The notes below the pieces were generated by a model, which worked only from the letters and a program-made list of their open reading frames with translations, was not told where the DNA came from and made no database searches. A stretch of 64,000 bases of DNA from an uncultured Candidatus Saccharibacteria bacterium. GTDB taxonomy: Bacteria > Patescibacteriota > Minisyncoccia > 2-02-FULL-40-12 > GWA2-44-9. The DNA lies in the NCBI GenBank assembly GCA_964488565.1, contig CAZAUE010000002.1, positions 40,048 to 104,047 of the forward strand, in the 5' to 3' direction. The position numbers were made by a program, and so were the translations under genes. This document shows positions 2,778 to 13,920 of the stretch, piece after piece (position 1 is the stretch's first letter; each line of letters opens with the position of its first letter).

Positions 2778-3239
2778 CTAGGACTTCTGTTCTTGCGATA
2801 TTCTACTCTTGAGACTCATTAGGGCTGAGACAAGGACTTCCAGATTGTCTCTAGTCAGCGTCCAAAGGACGTCGTTTTTAAAATCAAACCATAAATTAAT
2901 TTTTAGTTGATTTTTGCGATTAGTCTTAATACCTAACTGGATTTTCACGGCATCAGCAAAAAAGGTCTTTTTGCTTGTTTTTGATCCCCCATCAACAATG
3001 TACTGTAAATACGGCTGGTAATCACTAAAAGAAAAACCATTACCAGCCACCATAAACACTGCGGCCACCTTATCTCCAACCTTCACCACACTCGAACCGG
3101 ACCGTATACCTTTCTTTATAATCCTTCCGAGGGATTGATGTTGTTCATTTAAATAAGGATTGCGAAAGCACCTTCTTAGGTCAATAACTATCATTCCTCT
3201 TCTTAACTGGCAACGTTGAACTGATTGAGGACTAAACAT
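2778..3239 (-). CDS. hypothetical protein
   Basis: 153-aa ORF with a good coding look (start may be the internal MIVIDLRR). No family recognised by eye. A hairpin agccccgctacgctggggct followed by T-run overlaps the stop on the minus strand. Confidence 0.4.
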   Translation of the reverse strand: MFSPQSVQRCQLRRGMIVIDLRRCFRNPYLNEQHQSLGRIIKKGIRSGSSVVKVGDKVAAVFMVAGNGFSFSDYQPYLQYIVDGGSKTSKKTFFADAVKIQLGIKTNRKNQLKINLWFDFKNDVLWTLTRDNLEVLVSALMSLKSRISQEQKS

Positions 3240-3352
3240 CTAGTCTCCTTGATGATTGTTAAGCTTAAAACCTGATATATAATATGCCATTTTAAATAAA
3301 TTACAAGGCGAAAACGGGCCTTTTAAGCCGATTTAATTGTTCCGTGCGGAAC

Positions 3353-4885: not shown

Positions 4886-5127
4886 AAAAGTGTATCGCCC
4901 CTCCTACGACTAGTTATGTTTAATATTAGAATAATAACCCTTATGTTTTAAAAAGCAATCTCTAATATCGCTCTCGCCCCTTATTATTTCCGCTCCCCAG
5001 CCACATACTCTTGAAAAACCGCAATTGGTTTTCTCCTGCGAAAAACCATTGCTTCATGCTCAGCGTTCCGAAGAACCAAGCCGAAACGCTTCCGCAACAT
5101 TTTTCAAGAATACGTGACTGGTTCGCT

Positions 5128-5306
5128 TAACCCGAGCCAATGCATTCTCGAACGGCTTTTGCGAAATAGCTCGGAGTGTGCCGTGCTTTAGCCGGCTTAA
5201 CTCTCTGTAGCGGGCATGGTGTCTGTCAGTAGACAGACGAGCTTATGAGCAATAGCAGGGAGCGAACACGCTGGGTGAGCGAGCGTAGTGAGAGGATGCT
5301 TGGAGA
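5128..5306. repeat. right (inverted) copy of the inverted repeat pair; carries a 40-bp extra module
   Basis: Reverse complement matches 441-586. An additional 40 bp (about 5173-5212) contains the GTGCTTTAGCC module also seen at 693-727 and 11303-11336. Confidence 0.85.
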
Positions 5307-5651
5307 GGGGTTGAAGAAATTTTAAGAATCAAAAAAGGCGCAGAACGCCCCTAATAAGTATGTAGTGTGGGCTCTGCGCCTTTGGGTCTCTTGCGAGACA
5401 TGAATTGCCGGCAATCCACGAATGTGTCTGACCACCAGCTAAAGATCTATACTAATTATACAAAGTCATTGGTGACACTGCAATAGCCAAACTGTGGATA
5501 AGGTGACACCATCAAACCATGGTGACATATTCATGGTGACACCATCAAATATTGGCTAATAGTGTCATTATTCCAAATAATCAGCCCCGCCAAGCGGGGC
5601 TGATTATTTACTAAATTTTATGGTGACAACAGGTTATGCACAAACCATCAC

Positions 5652-7079
5652 CTAAAATCCTTTGAGCTTATCTATTGTTCCAAAGATGGCTTCTCTCGAG
5701 TTTGTTACAACAAAATATGTTTTACCATTAGATGCCACAACAATTGAATAGTCTATCGTTCTGTCGGCAAATGGGAAATTCCAGAATCTAATGTTTGTGT
5801 TCCTGTATGAGTTGTTTGTAAAACCAGTTTGGTCTTTATTGCTTTTACCTAAAGAAAACAGGACCTTAAGATCGTTACTTAAACTATTTTCCCAACTGGT
5901 AATTACTTCGGAAGCACTGGCGGAATCTTTTAGTTCTGCGACAGCCACAATTCTATTAGAGGCAGTGGGTTCAATCAACAAATTACCCTTGGAGTCAAAA
6001 GATTCTTTTTGACCATAAACGAACATGGCGGAATCGTTTCCAATATTGCTTACTAATCCCACTGGAACGTTTAAGGCAAGTTTGGACAATAAATCAACAA
6101 AACCATAGGAAGTAGATGCGTTTTGAGCGTCGATAGTATTCAATATTTTAAATGATCCTGGAACCACAACCACCTTGCCAGTATCAGATACAAAAGACGC
6201 TAGTGCTCCAGTCTGTTTGATACTGACACTCTCTCTTACTACTCCGGAAAACATAGAGCTCAATGTTGGAGTAGGGGTTGGAACTGGTGTTTCTGTTGGA
6301 GTTGGCGTAGGAGTTTCAATTACAATCTCCGGGGCTGGTGCTCTTAAGATAAAGAACCAGTATGCAAATCCGGCCACCAATGCTATAGCGCCGATTCCCA
6401 AAAATAACACATTACGATTACCGCCCTTGGACCCAGCCTCAGGAACATAAATTTGTGACTTTTCCTCTGAAGTTGCTGGTGGTTTTGGGGCATCTTTCAT
6501 TTGAGCTAGTGGGCCCGTTTTCTGGCTTTCGCCCAAATTTACACTTGGAACTTTGAATTGCTGACCTGGTACTGCTGGCTTAGGAACGACGGGTTGAGGA
6601 GCAGGAGCTGCTTGTTCAACCTTTCTGGGAATATTAATTCCGGCTGGTTTTTGGCCTTGTTTTATATTAGAAATATCCTCACTCATTGTTCTGATTGAAG
6701 ATTGATATTCTTTTACGCCCGAGGTTGGTGGGGGAGTAACAGAAGATGGAGCTGGGGCTGGTTTTGATTGAGCAAATGACTGAGGGGGAACATTAAATTG
6801 TGGTCGTGGTGCTTCTGGTTTAGGTGTTGGAGTTGGAACAACTGGAGGTCTCACCGTGGTTGGTGGGACAAATGGTTTTGGTGCTGGCGAAGGAGGAGTT
6901 GCGGGTAAACCAGCCATTGGGGGAGATACTGGCGGTTTAGGTGTTGAGGGAATAGGTCTTGGTGCCTGAGTTGAAGGCGCAAGGGGCGGTGTCGGTGCTA
7001 CAGGATTTGTAGAACTTTTACTTAATTCCCTAACCAAGTCATTTATGTCCATAGTTTGGGGTTTCTGGTCATCTGCCAT
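5652..7079 (-). CDS. proline-rich membrane protein, hypothetical
   Basis: 475 aa. An N-terminal low-complexity P/T/A-rich region of about 200 aa, one TM helix (VLFLGIGAIALVAGFAYWFFIL), and a C-terminal globular domain. No recognisable family. Confidence 0.5.
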   Translation of the reverse strand: MADDQKPQTMDINDLVRELSKSSTNPVAPTPPLAPSTQAPRPIPSTPKPPVSPPMAGLPATPPSPAPKPFVPPTTVRPPVVPTPTPKPEAPRPQFNVPPQSFAQSKPAPAPSSVTPPPTSGVKEYQSSIRTMSEDISNIKQGQKPAGINIPRKVEQAAPAPQPVVPKPAVPGQQFKVPSVNLGESQKTGPLAQMKDAPKPPATSEEKSQIYVPEAGSKGGNRNVLFLGIGAIALVAGFAYWFFILRAPAPEIVIETPTPTPTETPVPTPTPTLSSMFSGVVRESVSIKQTGALASFVSDTGKVVVVPGSFKILNTIDAQNASTSYGFVDLLSKLALNVPVGLVSNIGNDSAMFVYGQKESFDSKGNLLIEPTASNRIVAVAELKDSASASEVITSWENSLSNDLKVLFSLGKSNKDQTGFTNNSYRNTNIRFWNFPFADRTIDYSIVVASNGKTYFVVTNSREAIFGTIDKLKGF

Positions 7080-7212
7080 GAGTAGTGTTTAAATCTGGTA
7101 TTCAGAAATTTAGTATCAAAACTAAAAACCAAAAAACAGATTATGATTATGCTTGAGATAATTTTAACACAACCAAAGAATAAGTTGTAAACATTTGTAA
7201 ACAAAAAAGACC

Positions 7213-7250
7213 TCAACACAGTGAGCTTCACGCTATGCGTGAGGTCTCTT
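7213..7250 (-). terminator. rho-independent terminator (minus strand) downstream of the GC-rich islet gene
   Basis: Minus-strand reading gagacctcacgcatagcgtgaagctcactgtgttgaggtctttttt: an 8-bp stem followed by a U tract. Confidence 0.6.
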
Positions 7251-7412
7251 CTGTGCCGAGGTCGACCTAGGACCGAACGACAGGTTGCTGTTTGACGGGG
7301 CAACCCGTCATCGTCATGGGGTTGCGACGACGGAGCTTCAGGAGCATCCGCCAGAACCAGAATGTCTTTGATTTCTTCATGGATTCTCCTATCTTGGTCG
7401 ATGGGTCAACAA

Positions 7413-7745
7413 CTACTTGATGATGTTGCTGACCTCAGCGATGCCCCAGCCAACTCGATTGATGCCGACGAGGCGTCCGTAGCGGGAAACATTTCCATCT
7501 TCCCGCATCTCTCCACATGCCCAGACGTGGTTCTGACCCTTCTCGTCAGTCCAGGTGACACGATCGAGGTTGACGTCGTCAAAGCCCTCGGCGGGCCAGA
7601 CGTAGACAACGGCGCCGTCGTCCTTGGGTTGAGCAGCAGCGAGTTGTGCCTTGAGCGACCCAATCTCGCTGTTCTTGCTGATCCTGTCCGCTACACTTGG
7701 ACCGATAATGAGCAAGCAGATCATTACCCAACGAAGTTGCGTCAT
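7413..7745 (-). CDS. small secreted protein of foreign (high-GC) origin, hypothetical
   Basis: 110-aa ORF with a strong SD (GGAGGcagtATG) and signal peptide MTQLRWVMICLLIIGPSVA. GC and third-codon-position GC are far above the surrounding genome. Overlapping ORFs on other frames (7362..7820, 7406..7663, 7579..7881) are typical high-GC shadow ORFs. Confidence 0.45.
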   Translation of the reverse strand: MTQLRWVMICLLIIGPSVADRISKNSEIGSLKAQLAAAQPKDDGAVVYVWPAEGFDDVNLDRVTWTDEKGQNHVWACGEMREDGNVSRYGRLVGINRVGWGIAEVSNIIK

Positions 7746-8060
7746 ACTGCCTCCTGCGCGCTAAGCGCGCGTACCGAATTTTTACAGAACGAATCGTATT
7801 TAAATTATACCACATTTTAAGCCATTTTGTCAAACCATGATTTATAACAAAAAACCAGCTTTTTGAGCCGATTTTTAACATTAGCGCAGGAACTCAGTCA
7901 TCTGAAGACATTTGAGACGTTGGCTGAACCGACTGATACAATATTGGACGAAGTCTATCAGTCGGCGATTAGACAATGCGATTATAGCCGAGATAAAACC
8001 GCTCACGGAGGAGCGGTTTTATCGGAGGCGTGTCTGAAGGTGGCTGGGTTCTGGAGCGAT

Positions 8061-10172
8061 CTATCTGTGCCCCTTCATCGTCAAACTTATCTTTCCTGTG
8101 TCATCTACGGCTTTGACCCAGACGTGGACTTCCTGACCCACCTTCAAAACATCAGTTACTTTGCTTACTCTTTCGTTGCTGATTTCAGATACATGAACCA
8201 TTCCATCTTTGCCAGGCATTATTTCCACAAAGGCCCCGAAGTCTCTGATGCTTACAACTGTGCCATCAAATTCATCTCCAGTTTTTACTTCGTAAGTAAC
8301 CTCGGCGATAAGAGCTAAGGCCTTTTTCATTCCTTCTGGAGTCATAGATGTGACGAATACGGAACCATCATCTTCAATATCTATTTCAGCTCCGGTTTTC
8401 TCAATGATTTCATTAATTACTTTTCCGCCTGGGCCAATAAGGGCTCCTATCTTGGCGGGATTTATTTTCACGGTTTGTATGCGAGGTGCATGAGCTGATA
8501 ATTCAGCTCTCGGAGCAGAAATTGCTTTATTTATAACATCCAAAATTTCCAAGCGAGCCTTAAGGGCTTGCGCTAATGTTTCTTCAACTATTTTGGGAGT
8601 AATACCATCAACTTTTACATCCATCTGCATACCAGTAACACCATCTTTGGTTCCAGCAACTTTCAAGTCCATGTCACCATGATGATCTTCTGGTCCCTGA
8701 ATGTCGGTAAGGATTTTATACTTCTCATTTTTTTCATCAAACATCAATCCCATAGCAATACCGGCAGCAGGGGATTTGATAGGAACTCCACCATCCATTA
8801 ACGCTAGAGTGGAACCGCAAACCGAGGCCATGGATGAAGAACCGTTAGACGATAGAATTTCTGACACCAAACGAATGGTGTAAGGAAATGCGTCTTTGTC
8901 GGGAATTATTGGCTCAAGAGAACGTTCTGCCAAATATCCATGTCCAACCTCTCTGCGTCCAAGGGCACCGACACGTTTTACCTCACCAGTTGAATATGGA
9001 GGAAAGCTGTAATGATGCATAAAGCGCTTCTTTGTAAGATTTATTTCCATGGTTTCAAGCCATTGTTCCATGCCTGGAGCAGCAAGTGTCAAAATAGACA
9101 AAGCTTGTGTTGTTCCCCGATTAAACAATCCTGAACCGTGAACACGAGGAAGAATTGAGGTGTCAGCTGATAGAGCACGAAGTTGATCAATCTTTCTTCC
9201 GTCTGGTCGTTTTCCTTCCTCAAGGACATTCTTGTGAACCATTCGATCTATTTCTTCTTCAAAAATTACGCTTACTTCGCTTAATTTTTTAGCAAGATTA
9301 AGGTCTGCTTCATATGTAGCCTTAAAATGGTCCATGAGTTCAGTCTTAATCTGACCAATTCCTTCATACAATTCGTCCTTGCCTTTGCCAGGTAAATAAA
9401 GAGCAACCCGAAGCTTGTCTTCGGTAAGTTTTCGGACCTCTTCAACTAATGCGACATCATGTACTGCAATAGTAAGCTCTTTCTTTGGTTTTCCGACTTC
9501 GCTCGCAATTTTTTTCTGAAAATCAGTCAATTGTTTGAGGGACTCAAAACCAGCATTGATTGCATCAGACATATCTTTTTCAGGAACGATCTTTGCACCG
9601 GCTTCAATCATGTTAATTCTTGTTTCTGTTCCAGCAACAACAATGTCAAAATCACTCAAAGCTCGTTCGGCATAAGTAGGGTTAAAGATCAGTTTTCCGT
9701 CTACGCGGCCAACACGAACACCAGCAATCGGGCCATCAAAAGGTATGTCGGAAATCATCAACGCAAGAGATGCGCCAAAAAGCGCCACGATATCTGAATC
9801 GTTAACGTAATCAAACGACAAAACTGTTGCAACAACCTGAATTTCGTTTCTGATTTTATTATTAAATCTGGGTCGGAGAGGTCGATCAATTAATCGGCCT
9901 GCAAGTATGGCTTCTTCTGTTGGTCTGCCATCGCGTTTTACCCAATTTGAGCCCTTAATTTTTCCGGCGGCATAATATTTTTCTTCGTACTCAACCTGAA
10001 GAGGGAGGTAGTCAACGGCTTTTTCAGCGTTCGACATGGTGGCATTAACCATAACGGTAGTTTCACCATATTGAACAACACAAACACCATTAGCCTGTCC
10101 ACCGAGACGACCTAATTCGACCTTGAGGGTTTTCCCCGCAAAGTCCATACTATATGTTTTTACTTCTGCCAT
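8061..10172 (-). CDS. pnp: polynucleotide phosphorylase (PNPase)
   Basis: 703 aa with two RNase PH domains, KH and a C-terminal S1 domain (GTVVSIRDFGAFVEI). Classic PNPase order. Confidence 0.95.
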   Translation of the reverse strand: MAEVKTYSMDFAGKTLKVELGRLGGQANGVCVVQYGETTVMVNATMSNAEKAVDYLPLQVEYEEKYYAAGKIKGSNWVKRDGRPTEEAILAGRLIDRPLRPRFNNKIRNEIQVVATVLSFDYVNDSDIVALFGASLALMISDIPFDGPIAGVRVGRVDGKLIFNPTYAERALSDFDIVVAGTETRINMIEAGAKIVPEKDMSDAINAGFESLKQLTDFQKKIASEVGKPKKELTIAVHDVALVEEVRKLTEDKLRVALYLPGKGKDELYEGIGQIKTELMDHFKATYEADLNLAKKLSEVSVIFEEEIDRMVHKNVLEEGKRPDGRKIDQLRALSADTSILPRVHGSGLFNRGTTQALSILTLAAPGMEQWLETMEINLTKKRFMHHYSFPPYSTGEVKRVGALGRREVGHGYLAERSLEPIIPDKDAFPYTIRLVSEILSSNGSSSMASVCGSTLALMDGGVPIKSPAAGIAMGLMFDEKNEKYKILTDIQGPEDHHGDMDLKVAGTKDGVTGMQMDVKVDGITPKIVEETLAQALKARLEILDVINKAISAPRAELSAHAPRIQTVKINPAKIGALIGPGGKVINEIIEKTGAEIDIEDDGSVFVTSMTPEGMKKALALIAEVTYEVKTGDEFDGTVVSIRDFGAFVEIMPGKDGMVHVSEISNERVSKVTDVLKVGQEVHVWVKAVDDTGKISLTMKGHR

Positions 10173-12287: not shown

Positions 12288-12683
12288 TTAAAATCTTTTA
12301 GATCTAAGTTCTGGTCCATAATATGGATGTTTTCTTTTCTCGCCACAATGAGGACACTTGAAACTCAACCAATACTTATAGACATGGGAATGTAATCTCT
12401 CTGGGTCACCGCCCAACCACTTACACTCGTATTCATAATCTGGCAAAACCGGACCTTCAATTTTCACAATTTTACCTATGGCCATATAGCTAAAAGAAGA
12501 ATTTTTAGCACAAAATCTTGCTTCAATGGCCAAAGCCATATCACCAACTCTAAAAACTTTCTTTTCTTTTGTTCTTGATTCACATTCTATGGCTTTTCTT
12601 TGAGTACGATATTTAGTTCCACAAACTTCACATTGAAAAGAGCGGACTGTATGCGCAGGAACTCGTCTGATTATCTTCTTCAT
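12288..12683 (-). CDS. zinc-ribbon protein, hypothetical
   Basis: CEVCG...CPHCGEK Cys pairs. 131 aa. Overlaps the start of the downstream M23 gene by 4 nt (operon). Confidence 0.4.
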   Translation of the reverse strand: MKKIIRRVPAHTVRSFQCEVCGTKYRTQRKAIECESRTKEKKVFRVGDMALAIEARFCAKNSSFSYMAIGKIVKIEGPVLPDYEYECKWLGGDPERLHSHVYKYWLSFKCPHCGEKRKHPYYGPELRSKRF

Positions 12684-13612
12684 TGTATTTCTCCATAAGG
12701 AAGGGCTGAGTTGATTGTATCAATAAACACTAGCGGGTCAACGTTCGTTCCATGAACTTTAATCATGAAATGAAGATGTGGAGATGCTTTCCGAGGCGTT
12801 GCTCCTGTTAAGGCAACAACCTGCCCCTTTTTAACAACATCTCCAACCTTAACTTTAAATTTAGACAAGTGCAGATACAAAGAAATAACTCCGGAGCCGT
12901 GATCAATGATGAGCATGTTTCCTTCTGTCCCTTGAATCGGAAAATTATGGGCCAGCAGAACTCGTCCTGAATTAATTGCAACAACAGGTAGGGGAGTTCT
13001 GGCCCTTAAGTCCGTTCCGGCATGATAAACAGTTTGTTGAATTTTTATTTTCTTTGTCTTTTTATCACGCTGTCCGTACAAGCGGGGAGTGCCAAAGTTA
13101 TCGGTTTTTTCAATACTTTCTAATGGATACAAGAATGGCCCCACCGCATAATTTTCATAAAAATTGGCGGATTTATATGCTTTGTTTTTTATTGCCTGCT
13201 CTTTGGCACGTTGCTCTTGAATGAGTTTATTTTTGGGTCTAAGTGAACCAACAAACCAAGGATCTCCGAAAACAGTTTCCTTAACATCTATGTGAGTATA
13301 ATAGAAATCAAACTGTTTAGCTTTCTGATATTCTTGATATTCAACCAAATAGACCAAATAACTACCCGGCTTTTGACTGATCTCGACTCCAACAAAAACA
13401 AATCCATTAGAGTCAAAAGGGTAGTCTCTATCAAAAACACGAAGCCCCAAATTTTTACCAACCAAATCGGAAGCGACTCTCACCACTAAAACTTCGCCCT
13501 GATTAACAAATGACTTACGGTTGTAAACCTCGAAGCTCTGAGCATAAGCTTGGGATAGTGATAAAAACATAAAGCAAATAATGGCCCCGGCCATTCGTAC
13601 ACATTTTTGCAT
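12680..13612 (-). CDS. M23 family metallopeptidase, secreted
   Basis: Signal peptide, then C-terminal M23 motifs (HAGTDL...; GNMLIIDHGSGVISLYLHL; GATPRKASPHLHFMIKVHG). Confidence 0.75.
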   Translation of the reverse strand: MQKCVRMAGAIICFMFLSLSQAYAQSFEVYNRKSFVNQGEVLVVRVASDLVGKNLGLRVFDRDYPFDSNGFVFVGVEISQKPGSYLVYLVEYQEYQKAKQFDFYYTHIDVKETVFGDPWFVGSLRPKNKLIQEQRAKEQAIKNKAYKSANFYENYAVGPFLYPLESIEKTDNFGTPRLYGQRDKKTKKIKIQQTVYHAGTDLRARTPLPVVAINSGRVLLAHNFPIQGTEGNMLIIDHGSGVISLYLHLSKFKVKVGDVVKKGQVVALTGATPRKASPHLHFMIKVHGTNVDPLVFIDTINSALPYGEIQ

Positions 13613-13702: not shown

Positions 13703-13880
13703 TCACAGATAATTCTTCACTACTGGGGAGGGACTCGCCCACAAGTTGAATTGTCTTCCGACAATTCTCTTGCGGGCCCAGCTCGTGGTTTCGCTCGCCA
13801 ATTGCTCGCGAAACATCACTGCGCTTTTCGAGTCACTACGCGAGCCAAGCAGTTGGCTCGCTCCCTCGGGCTACTGAGTA
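13703..13880. repeat. GC-rich insert downstream of tRNA-Leu carrying a partial duplicate of the tRNA 3' end
   Basis: ctggggagggactcg at 13723-13737 duplicates the tRNA-Leu T-arm and acceptor sequence (13929-13943). It shares the cccagctcgtggttt...aacatcactgcgcttt module with 32470-32530. GC content is far above the flanks. Confidence 0.6.
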
Positions 13881-13920
13881 GTAAATTAAAATCGCTGTAA
13901 TTACAGCGATTTTAATTTAC
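13881..13920. repeat. perfect 40-bp palindrome (bidirectional hairpin terminator) at the tRNA-Leu 3' end
   Basis: gtaaattaaaatcgctgtaa|ttacagcgattttaatttac: perfect 20-bp arms. Separates tRNA-Leu from the GC-rich insert. Confidence 0.7.

Follow-up and report, generated by a model that had tools for sequence, protein, structure and literature searches.

A GC-rich orphan two-gene accessory unit with an overlooked micropeptide gene next to pnp in a Patescibacteria genome

The 64,000-nucleotide stretch of contig CAZAUE010000002.1 that we analyzed (the window) contains, between pnp and a gene encoding a proline-rich (Pro-rich) protein, a GC-rich islet that is a single transcription unit, i.e., a self-contained accessory cargo unit of ~670 bp that extends from ~7203 to 7876 on the minus strand. 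The 5′ edge of this unit is formed by a hairpin motif, AAAAATC-GGCTCAAAAAGCTGGTTTT-TTG (7848–7876, minus strand), which is terminator-like for transcripts arriving from the pnp side, and whose core, GGCTYAAANNGNYNGTTTT (7851–7869, minus strand), has a second copy in the window at 3311–3329 (minus strand) against a chance expectation of 0.04 matches. It is followed by a sigma-70-type promoter, TTGACA-18 nt-TATAAT (7804–7833, minus strand; −35 at 7833–7828), with a TG ahead of the −10 (extended −10), that agrees with the consensus at 12/12 positions, a match that occurs once in the window. This promoter is almost unchanged in L001, L002, L005, L006, L007, L012, and L014 (loci on related contigs carry L numbers throughout), and the 5′ leader behind it, ATTCGTTCTGTAAAAATTCGG (7774–7794, minus strand), is (nearly) invariant in all cassettes, including that of L014, where the upstream gene is a different one (A2, see below). 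Promoter and hairpin motif set the 5′ limit of the unit in AT-rich DNA, outside the coordinates that a first-pass annotation of this stretch had given for the islet.

Two genes are present between the promoter and the terminator. Gene A (7413–7745, minus strand; 110 aa) belongs to an orphan family and is preceded by the Shine-Dalgarno (SD) sequence AGGAGG (7750–7755, minus strand), which lies 4 nt from the ATG and is invariant in the alignment of the window with related contigs; both the open reading frame (ORF) and its consensus SD had been described correctly in the first pass. The palindrome GCGCGCTTAGCGCGC, which the same annotation took to border the islet, is also real, but it is located at 7756–7770 rather than 7752–7766, and is not a border: it is a hairpin of the 5′ untranslated region (5′-UTR), GCGCGC-TTA-GCGCGC on the minus strand, immediately 5′ of the gene A SD. 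Its GCGC..GCGC stem is retained, with no covariation, in L002, L005, L006, L007, and L012, and the hairpin is missing from L014. Gene B (7267–7380, minus strand), which we found in the alignment with related contigs, encodes a 37-aa protein, MKKSKTFWFWRMLLKLRRRNPMTMTGCPVKQQPVVRS, and has its own SD, AGGAGA (7385–7390, minus strand), seen in both the sequence and the alignment. The interval that contains it (7251–7412) had been considered non-coding, a description that is contradicted by this conserved ORF and by the mostly synonymous substitutions that distinguish its homologues. Two mRNA hairpins are predicted within gene B by RNAalifold (7299–7352, minus strand), and the unit ends with an intrinsic terminator (7203–7254, minus strand), a compound hairpin, AGAAGAGACCUCA..UGAGGUCUUUUUU, with a U-run in the minimum free energy structure, in agreement with the minus-strand terminator proposed earlier. 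Relatives have another long hairpin at this position (CCCCGACAGGA..TCCTGTGCGGGG with a T-run), and homology to alleles that lack the cargo restarts at ~7197.

The junction of the two genes is compact in most relatives, in that the stop codon of A overlaps either the SD of B (TAGGAGA, in L002/L003) or its start codon (ATGA, in L006 and L007); the window has a 32-nt spacer instead. Compared with L002/L003/L005, the window and L001 contain ~24 extra nt between the A stop and the B SD (7381–7412), which create a second in-frame TAG. These extra nucleotides, together with a terminator unrelated to the CCCCGACAGGA..TCCTGTGCGGGG hairpin, show that the 3′ part of the window copy has been remodelled. 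From this layout, i.e., one promoter, one terminator, and two coupled genes, we predict expression as a bicistronic operon. The extended −10 consensus promoter would drive a GC-rich and unusually structured mRNA, with gene A translated from a perfect SD, and gene B translated by coupling to A, since the SD or ATG of B overlaps the A stop in most variants. The SD of B can also pair, as judged from the sequence, with GGUUCU in the codons of gene B that encode Trp-Phe-Trp (WFW), which would tie translation of B to ribosomes passing from A. The antisense 152-aa ORF at 7362–7820 (plus strand) and the other long ORFs of the islet can be discarded as by-products of GC richness, as their extent varies among homologues and purifying selection acts on the sense frames.

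The unusual composition of the islet is genuine, and is seen in both codon and amino-acid usage. As the first pass had noted, a high-GC block lies between the Pro-rich gene and pnp: positions 7230–7790 have 55.6% GC compared with 39.0% for the window overall, and among the 540-nt segments of the window (mean GC 39.0%, standard deviation 3.6%), the maximum is found in that starting at 7231. The strong G/C bias at third codon positions is equally clear. Gene A has a GC content of 0.595/0.414/0.685 at the three codon positions, compared with 0.468/0.355/0.326 (standard deviations 0.049/0.052/0.037) for the 51 other ORFs of the window, which places its third-position value (GC3) ~9.7 standard deviations above their mean. 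C-ending and CGN codons prevail in its codon choice, with CTC used for 7/10 Leu, GTC for 9/15 Val, ATC for 7/9 Ile, and CGN for 11/12 Arg, in addition to AAG for 8/10 Lys. Amino-acid usage has moved as well, with a fraction of Gly, Ala, Arg, and Pro (GARP) of 0.26–0.30 versus 0.21±0.04, and an R/(R+K) ratio of 0.58–0.67 versus 0.35±0.12. Translational selection can be rejected as the source of the high GC3, since GC3 is 0.38 in the gene for ribosomal protein S15 and 0.33 in pnp.

Both genes are protein-coding and under purifying selection, as indicated by ratios of nonsynonymous to synonymous divergence (dN/dS, Nei-Gojobori) well below 1 at near-saturated synonymous divergence (dS): dN/dS is 0.21–0.45 at a dS of 0.8–1.8 for gene A, and 0.06–0.36 at a dS of 0.3–1.7 for gene B, where changes are mostly synonymous. 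Gene A begins with MTQLR, and hydrophobic residues 4–18, ending in G-P, are followed by SVA|D. We read these features by eye from the sequence, and they resemble a Sec signal, as the signal peptide of the first-pass annotation implied; the protein is predicted to be exported or membrane-anchored through this Sec-signal-like or signal-anchor N-terminus, behind which come a short helix (ISKNSEIxSLKAQL) and, at the C-terminus, a small domain rich in beta structure. An AlphaFold2 model from a 6-sequence alignment contains an N-terminal helix, a helix at residues 27–37, and four strands, and with a mean confidence (pLDDT) of 47.8 only its secondary structure is usable. Gene B is the most conserved part of the cassette, and is kept as an ORF of 36–38 codons in L003, L005, L006, L007, and L014, with all indels in frame. 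The window protein has a net charge of +10, contains zero acidic residues, is rich in Trp and Arg, and has neither a signal peptide nor a membrane-spanning stretch; across relatives the charge is +9 to +11, with 2–3 Trp and no hydrophobic span. A single B copy among those that we found had been called as a gene in a protein collection, where it was found with a 41-aa extended version, so that our comparison brings to light a conserved 37-aa gene overlooked by gene callers as well as by the first pass. Neither protein has a match in Pfam, PHROGs, NCBIfam, or PADLOC, or among the sequences of the PDB. The A/B cassette is a new orphan two-gene accessory unit with an overlooked micropeptide gene.

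We searched for relatives among about 15 billion proteins. Three gene A relatives with 99, 73, and 51% identity were returned when 5.8 billion clusters were searched by word index, and an exhaustive hidden Markov model (HMM) search, run over 1.84 billion representative proteins, contributed just two more, of 99 aa and 59 aa (the gene A homologues are numbered P0001–P0004 and P0006). Every relative is located on a groundwater contig, several of them from Rifle and Hainich samples, with AT-rich Yanofskybacteria-type flanks and the common promoter and leader, and the cassette bodies are equally GC-rich (0.53–0.57 GC, GC3 0.63–0.69); for example, in L007 an islet of 57% GC stands within a background of 35–45%. 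Window proteins have exact matches in Ca. Yanofskybacteria GW2011_GWA1_39_13, i.e., KKR02641 (S15), KKR02643 (PNPase), KKR02645 (Pro-rich protein), and KKR02619 (DNA ligase), which identify this bacterium as the source of the window; the NCBI protein set of that record does not include gene A.

Comparison of these loci demonstrates that the site between pnp and the Pro-rich gene holds different genes in different strains, and we consider it very probable that A and B are an accessory two-gene cargo unit in a variable slot. For example, L007–L012 are syntenic with the window, with the order pnp, hicB, hicA, a short A of 59 aa, B, terminator, and Pro-rich gene. In L016 (a 450-kb contig) and L017–L020, which encode a PNPase 92–96% identical to that of the window, the slot contains unrelated genes of ~95 aa and ~175 aa with a host-like GC3 of 0.30–0.40. 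The flank upstream of the L005 cassette is 84% identical to the L016 flank downstream of pnp as far as the hairpin motif, where the similarity ends. Between the window and L016/L017, the match extends no further than ~7197, a position just beyond the terminator. In L013/L014, B and its long terminator are found behind the same promoter and leader, with an unrelated upstream gene, A2 (131–141 aa), which encodes an N-terminal membrane helix and a coiled coil. We rejected A and A2 as homologues (hhalign E = 0.09, probability 0.6%), as they have architecture alone in common. This architecture, an N-terminal membrane helix leading directly into a short leucine-zipper-like helix, is also that of DivIC/FtsB (PF04977); in contrast to that family, gene A has no hit and A2 stays below threshold (E 0.017–0.06; 13.6–15.4 bits vs a cut-off of 28.9), and divIC/ftsB are core genes whereas the A/A2 locus is accessory and variable. 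The hairpin core precedes every cargo unit in the related loci, with three copies in L012, and the −35 sequence TTGAC follows it by 5–17 nt. This hypervariable slot, with its recurring hairpin and promoter lead-in, provides handles on strain-level gene flux in an uncultivated episymbiotic lineage, as well as on possible toxin/immunity or host-interaction functions and on micropeptides of the Candidate Phyla Radiation (CPR).

In L015, positions 125–984 contain a further GC-rich operon (GC3 0.68–0.72) behind an AT-rich consensus promoter. Its first gene encodes an EamA-like half-transporter of 150 aa (a Pfam hit at E = 7e-4 that misses the cut-off) and its second an A2 homologue, and B is absent. 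GC richness thus extends to cassettes other than the A+B pair.

What this unit does is suggested by where it is found and how it is built. Our tentative reading is that A and B form a toxin-partner module, of either the toxin-antitoxin or the leaderless cationic bacteriocin/immunity type. This guess is based on a slot that also houses hicBA, on small coupled genes with a swappable upstream and a conserved downstream partner, and on the combination of a leaderless cationic B with an exported or anchored A. B, which is leaderless, polycationic, and rich in Trp and Arg, resembles peptides that bind to nucleic acids or to anionic membranes; as a membrane-active peptide, it would have in A its immunity, antidote, or handling protein. 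When the accessory unit and the toxin-partner function are blended into a single statement, we lean slightly in its favor. Sister strains (L007–L012) have a bona fide toxin-antitoxin pair, hicBA, at this site, and like type II toxin-antitoxin systems, A and B are small, translationally coupled, and strain-variable, and have their own promoter in an accessory slot, with a variable, swappable upstream partner (A, A2, or short A) and a conserved downstream one. Unlike these systems, A, B, and their homologues match no toxin-antitoxin family in Pfam, NCBIfam, or PADLOC, A lacks a DNA-binding domain and possesses a signal or anchor sequence, and the candidate toxin B is a 37-aa polycationic peptide with no enzyme fold. 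Leaderless class II bacteriocins with adjacent immunity genes, such as LsbB, EJ97, aureocin A53, and lacticin Q, offer a second comparison. B resembles them in its length of 36–38 aa, its Met start with no leader, its strongly cationic and Trp-rich composition, and its probable N-terminal helix with a conserved unstructured tail, and in its predicted co-transcription with a small membrane-associated protein from an accessory locus of atypical composition. It differs in that it has no sequence or profile similarity to them (Pfam, NCBIfam, PDB), in that the A+B unit contains no ABC exporter or other export gene, and in that the candidate immunity gene lies upstream of B.

Several observations weigh against a toxin-partner function. 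No homology to toxin, antitoxin, bacteriocin, immunity, or defence families was found in the five collections searched, so that a function can be proposed from composition, architecture, and location alone, and the structural model of A is uninformative at its low confidence. If A is cleaved and secreted, it could not neutralise a cytoplasmic B. In addition, the unit has no exporter gene for B, as only A and B lie between promoter and terminator. The replacement of A by A2, or its shortening to 59 aa, with B intact, fits antidote swapping and fits separate roles of A and B equally well.

Such separate roles are the basis of an alternative that we regard as unlikely, in which A is the effector, a small secreted or surface protein for contact with a host or competitor, and B is an accessory regulator or handling peptide and not a toxin. 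The Sec-type N-terminus and the strong constitutive promoter are consistent with this, as are the episymbiotic lifestyle of CPR bacteria (PMC9600506) and a C-terminal domain that behaves like a surface or interaction domain, being replaced (A2), truncated, or fast-diverging (51% identity where the slot flank is ~84% identical). However, a dN/dS of 0.2–0.45 gives no average sign of positive selection, the 59-aa A of L007–L012 does without the C-terminal domain while B stays intact, and no adhesin or effector homology was found in the same collections. Two other roles were considered and rejected. A spanin pair (Rz/Rz1-like), with A as an i-spanin-like membrane helix plus coiled coil and B as the partner with an ‘LGC’ motif, fails because B lacks the h-region of a signal peptide and has ~10 aa after the Cys. 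A Trp-codon leader-peptide attenuator (WFW with downstream hairpins) fails as the main role because the whole of B is conserved under purifying selection and the downstream genes differ among loci.

The GC richness of the unit is a trait of the family and not the mark of a recent transfer into the window genome. GC3 is 0.60–0.72 in A, A2, and the L015 EamA-like gene (gene-body GC 0.53–0.57), and 0.25–0.40 in the other cargo alleles. Between the window and L007, dS is 1.23 for pnp (host range 1.0–1.5), compared with 1.04 for A (N-terminal part) and 1.55 for B, and this similarity of cassette and pnp dS makes the copies at the site look as old as the split of their hosts. We estimated how far GC3 should have decayed over such a time with a two-state model (equilibrium GC3 0.33, 0.6 substitutions per synonymous site per lineage, and 70–85% of changes between strong, G/C, and weak, A/T, bases, S and W). 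By this estimate, an excess of GC3 would shrink to 0.32–0.39 of its start, and even an ancestor of 100% GC3 would now have 0.54–0.59, or ≤0.50 for the deeper A splits (dS 1.7–1.8). The polarised changes (S>W:W>S) are near balance in deep trios (37:27, 38:36, and 49:39) and show net GC loss in close pairs (16:5, 4:3, and 2:0). Two explanations can be offered, and the data are consistent with either. The GC content may be held up in place, by RNA structure or stability, by biased conversion in a recombination hot spot, or by avoidance of AT-specific cleavage. Alternatively, the cassettes may have diversified in an unsampled GC-richer pool, and been re-imported by replacement between the conserved promoter/leader and B/terminator ends, so that they are now decaying. 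The excess of 22:8 in the close pairs weighs against a stable equilibrium in place, and an outside pool is made less attractive by the finding of no family member on GC-rich flanks among all loci found; past acquisition from an unsampled GC-richer gene pool is nevertheless possible.

Of the forces that could act in place, selection on a stable, structured, and possibly dual-function mRNA is one to which we give a low probability as the reason, rather than foreign origin, that GC is kept. The whole transcript folds with a z-score of −4.4 relative to dinucleotide shuffles, and the A+B body with −3.3, compared with −2.1 to +1.2 for 12 control coding segments of the window, and the sense strand of the unit folds better than the antisense strand. 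B plus the intergenic region scores −2.7. In an alignment of 7 B regions, RNAalifold predicts a hairpin at 7329–7352, GGCGGAuGCU-loop-AGCUCCGyC (partner arm AGCUCCGCC), with a 9-bp stem that never varies, even at synonymous sites, the variable positions being in the loop, and a second stem at 7299–7327, CGCAACCC..GGGUUGC, that is kept through three independent changes to G-U wobble. A GC3 of 0.63–0.69 at a dS of 0.8–1.8, i.e., above the neutral-decay values of 0.5–0.6 or less, and the near balance of S>W and W>S changes in the deep comparisons also fit such selection. On the other hand, gene A by itself scores within the range of the controls (z = −1.6) and yet has the highest GC3, RNA structure does not explain the shift in amino acids, and GC is lost on balance in the close pairs. 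The B hairpins of the 7 sequences contain no double compensatory change, so that the conserved structure in B is suggestive, short of proof. Rfam covariance-model scans, which covered 6500–8500 at E≤1, the whole window at the gathering score, and five cassette loci plus the L017 slot at E≤0.1, gave no hit at the gathering score beyond tRNAs elsewhere and only chance-level matches otherwise, and we therefore rule out a known Rfam family for the islet.

Recent horizontal acquisition by the window genome from a high-GC donor is improbable. The first-pass annotation had favored such an import, from Actinobacteria or from the host of an episymbiont, had proposed a homology search of the ORF as a check, and had named homologues of the same composition in related CPR genomes as the sign of an old resident gene. 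Our search of the ORF found relatives only in a Yanofskybacteria-type context and in no donor lineage, and the syntenic L007 provides one such homologue in a related CPR genome, the very observation that had been named as evidence against an import. In favor of import are the GC3 of 0.685 versus 0.326, with amino-acid and codon usage shifted toward the values of GC-rich genomes, a site that accepts foreign cargo, and the 22:8 ratio in close cassette pairs, as expected for imported DNA decaying toward AT. Methanothrix genomes have a GC content above 50%. Ca. Yanofskybacteria/UBA5738 is a specific parasite of Methanothrix (PMC9600506), i.e., some members of the lineage have a host of this kind, which makes a host-derived origin conceivable, yet no archaeal homologue was found. 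Nor did our searches, which covered proteins, GTDB, IMG/VR, INPHARED, and PLSDB, identify an Actinobacterial, phage, or plasmid donor: GTDB species representatives contain no gene A relative and no B motif, scanning IMG/VR for proteins A and A2, for the EamA-like protein, and for the DNA motif of B yielded no relative, and INPHARED phages and PLSDB plasmids gave no match by blastn or tblastn, on which basis we reject a phage, plasmid, or viral origin. All relatives occupy the same slot, with AT-rich Yanofskybacteria flanks and a promoter of the same native type. At synonymous sites, the syntenic L007 copy has diverged as much as pnp has; the cassette is therefore no recent arrival in the lineage. 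Among the signs of a recently transferred islet, atypical composition is present and a matching donor lineage is absent; presence/absence polymorphism at the site is seen (L016 and L017–L020 have other cargo), qualified by the diverged A/B copy that L007 carries at the same site. Groundwater Patescibacteria have genomic islands, and most of their transfers are reported to occur within the phylum (PMC12455944). The A+B unit is likewise atypical accessory DNA in a groundwater CPR genome, and differs from the islands usually called in being far smaller (0.67 kb), and in an anomaly that is found in the whole family and has survived divergence up to the synonymous saturation of the host.

It is similarly doubtful that the locus represents an undescribed Yanofskybacteria cassette system, with a family of A, A2, or EamA-like genes plus B that is actively kept at ~56% GC (GC3 ~0.65) in genomes of ~39% GC, and with B as a new class of conserved, polycationic Trp/Arg micropeptide under an RNA-level constraint of its own. 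In such a system, short promoter-bearing units, each led by the hairpin motif, would be exchanged at fixed slots with no neighbouring integrase, and their GC would be held by selection on the structured bicistronic mRNA or by a cassette-specific biased process rather than reflect foreign origin. A comparable known arrangement is that of integron cassettes (attC), which resemble the slot in their tandem units of one or two cargo genes and may also resemble it in a repeated imperfect hairpin at the junctions, of which L012 has three; here, the core motif stands at every cargo junction and resembles an intrinsic terminator. Unlike integrons, there is no IntI beside the array, the cargo units have their own promoters, the terminator-like motif is 5′ of the unit, and no R′/R″ core sites were identified. 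The only tyrosine recombinase in L016/L017 is Xer-like and lies ~1.5 kb past the pnp start, with the S15 and NYN genes between, and the window has an ORF in the corresponding position beyond S15 (12680–13612, minus strand).

A chimeric assembly or contaminant join, which the first pass had also raised and for which the abrupt change in composition is the sole argument, can be dismissed: the exact gene A protein occurs on five contigs from different runs and assemblers (three from ENA, one from the Joint Genome Institute, and one from Logan; one of them a 13.9-kb contig spanning NYN-pnp-A-ProRich-ChlI), all collinear with the window over both junctions at 99.9–100% identity, the composition boundaries fall on the promoter and the terminator, and diverged homologues have the same AT-rich/GC-rich junctions. 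A sharp GC islet in a CPR genome thus need be neither an assembly error nor a recent import from a named donor. The odd composition of this lineage-restricted cassette has outlived synonymous saturation of its host, an outcome that simple amelioration models do not predict.

Several further features of the window and the related loci were observed. The second copy of the hairpin motif, GGCTTAAAAGGCCCGTTTT at 3311–3329 (minus strand), follows a ChlI-like gene and leads a 153-aa gene at 2778–3239 (minus strand). The genes after the ChlI-like gene are unrelated in L007, L016, and L017, which identifies a second variable cargo slot with the same lead-in. The same region is bracketed by an inverted repeat of ~150–190 nt (440–586 and 5127–5313), 98% complementary and with a 40-nt insertion in one arm; the repeat has ~52% GC, and L007 does not conserve it. 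The 4.5-kb segment that it encloses contains three small genes in addition to the ChlI-like gene. This may be a repeat of the MITE (miniature inverted-repeat transposable element) type; alternatively, its two arms may be the termini of an invertible or mobile segment.

Downstream of the Pro-rich gene, at 5290–5470 (minus strand; 4190–4350 in L007), is a unit of ~130 nt that is nearly invariant between the window and L007. It has a promoter-like site, TTGGCT-N17-TATAAT, and a terminator, ..GGCGCAGAGCCCACACTACATACTTATTAGGGGCGTTCTGCGCCTTTTTT, with no conserved ORF and no Rfam hit, and we regard it as a candidate small RNA. Immediately upstream, at about 5480–5620, GTGTCACC(AT) occurs in several copies. 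On the other side of the cassette, the ~130–180 nt between the pnp terminator (AAAACCGCTCCTCCGTGAGCGGTTTT) and the hairpin motif (7877–8060, minus strand) contain a TATAAT and an internal hairpin, GACTGATA..TATCAGTC, as well as part of a sequence that is conserved among L001/L002/L005/L016, and may encode a small transcript. The 151-aa ORF at 7863–8318 (plus strand), which overlaps pnp in antisense, is probably spurious.

A last repeated unit, element X, adjoins cargo units in several strains in either orientation and is absent from the window. It lies between the inverted repeats CTGATATTTTATTTCA .. TGAAATAAAATATCAG, and has a GC-rich core, ..CAACCGGCGGAGG.., no Rfam hit, and its own promoter, TTGA-N17-TATAAT. 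Copies are found in L017 (8975–9290), L016 (8745–8960 and, inverted, 13800–13910), L006 (840–950), and L014 (1–95, inverted, and 840–950), and element X may represent either a gene for a small RNA or a MITE that is linked to the variability of the slot.

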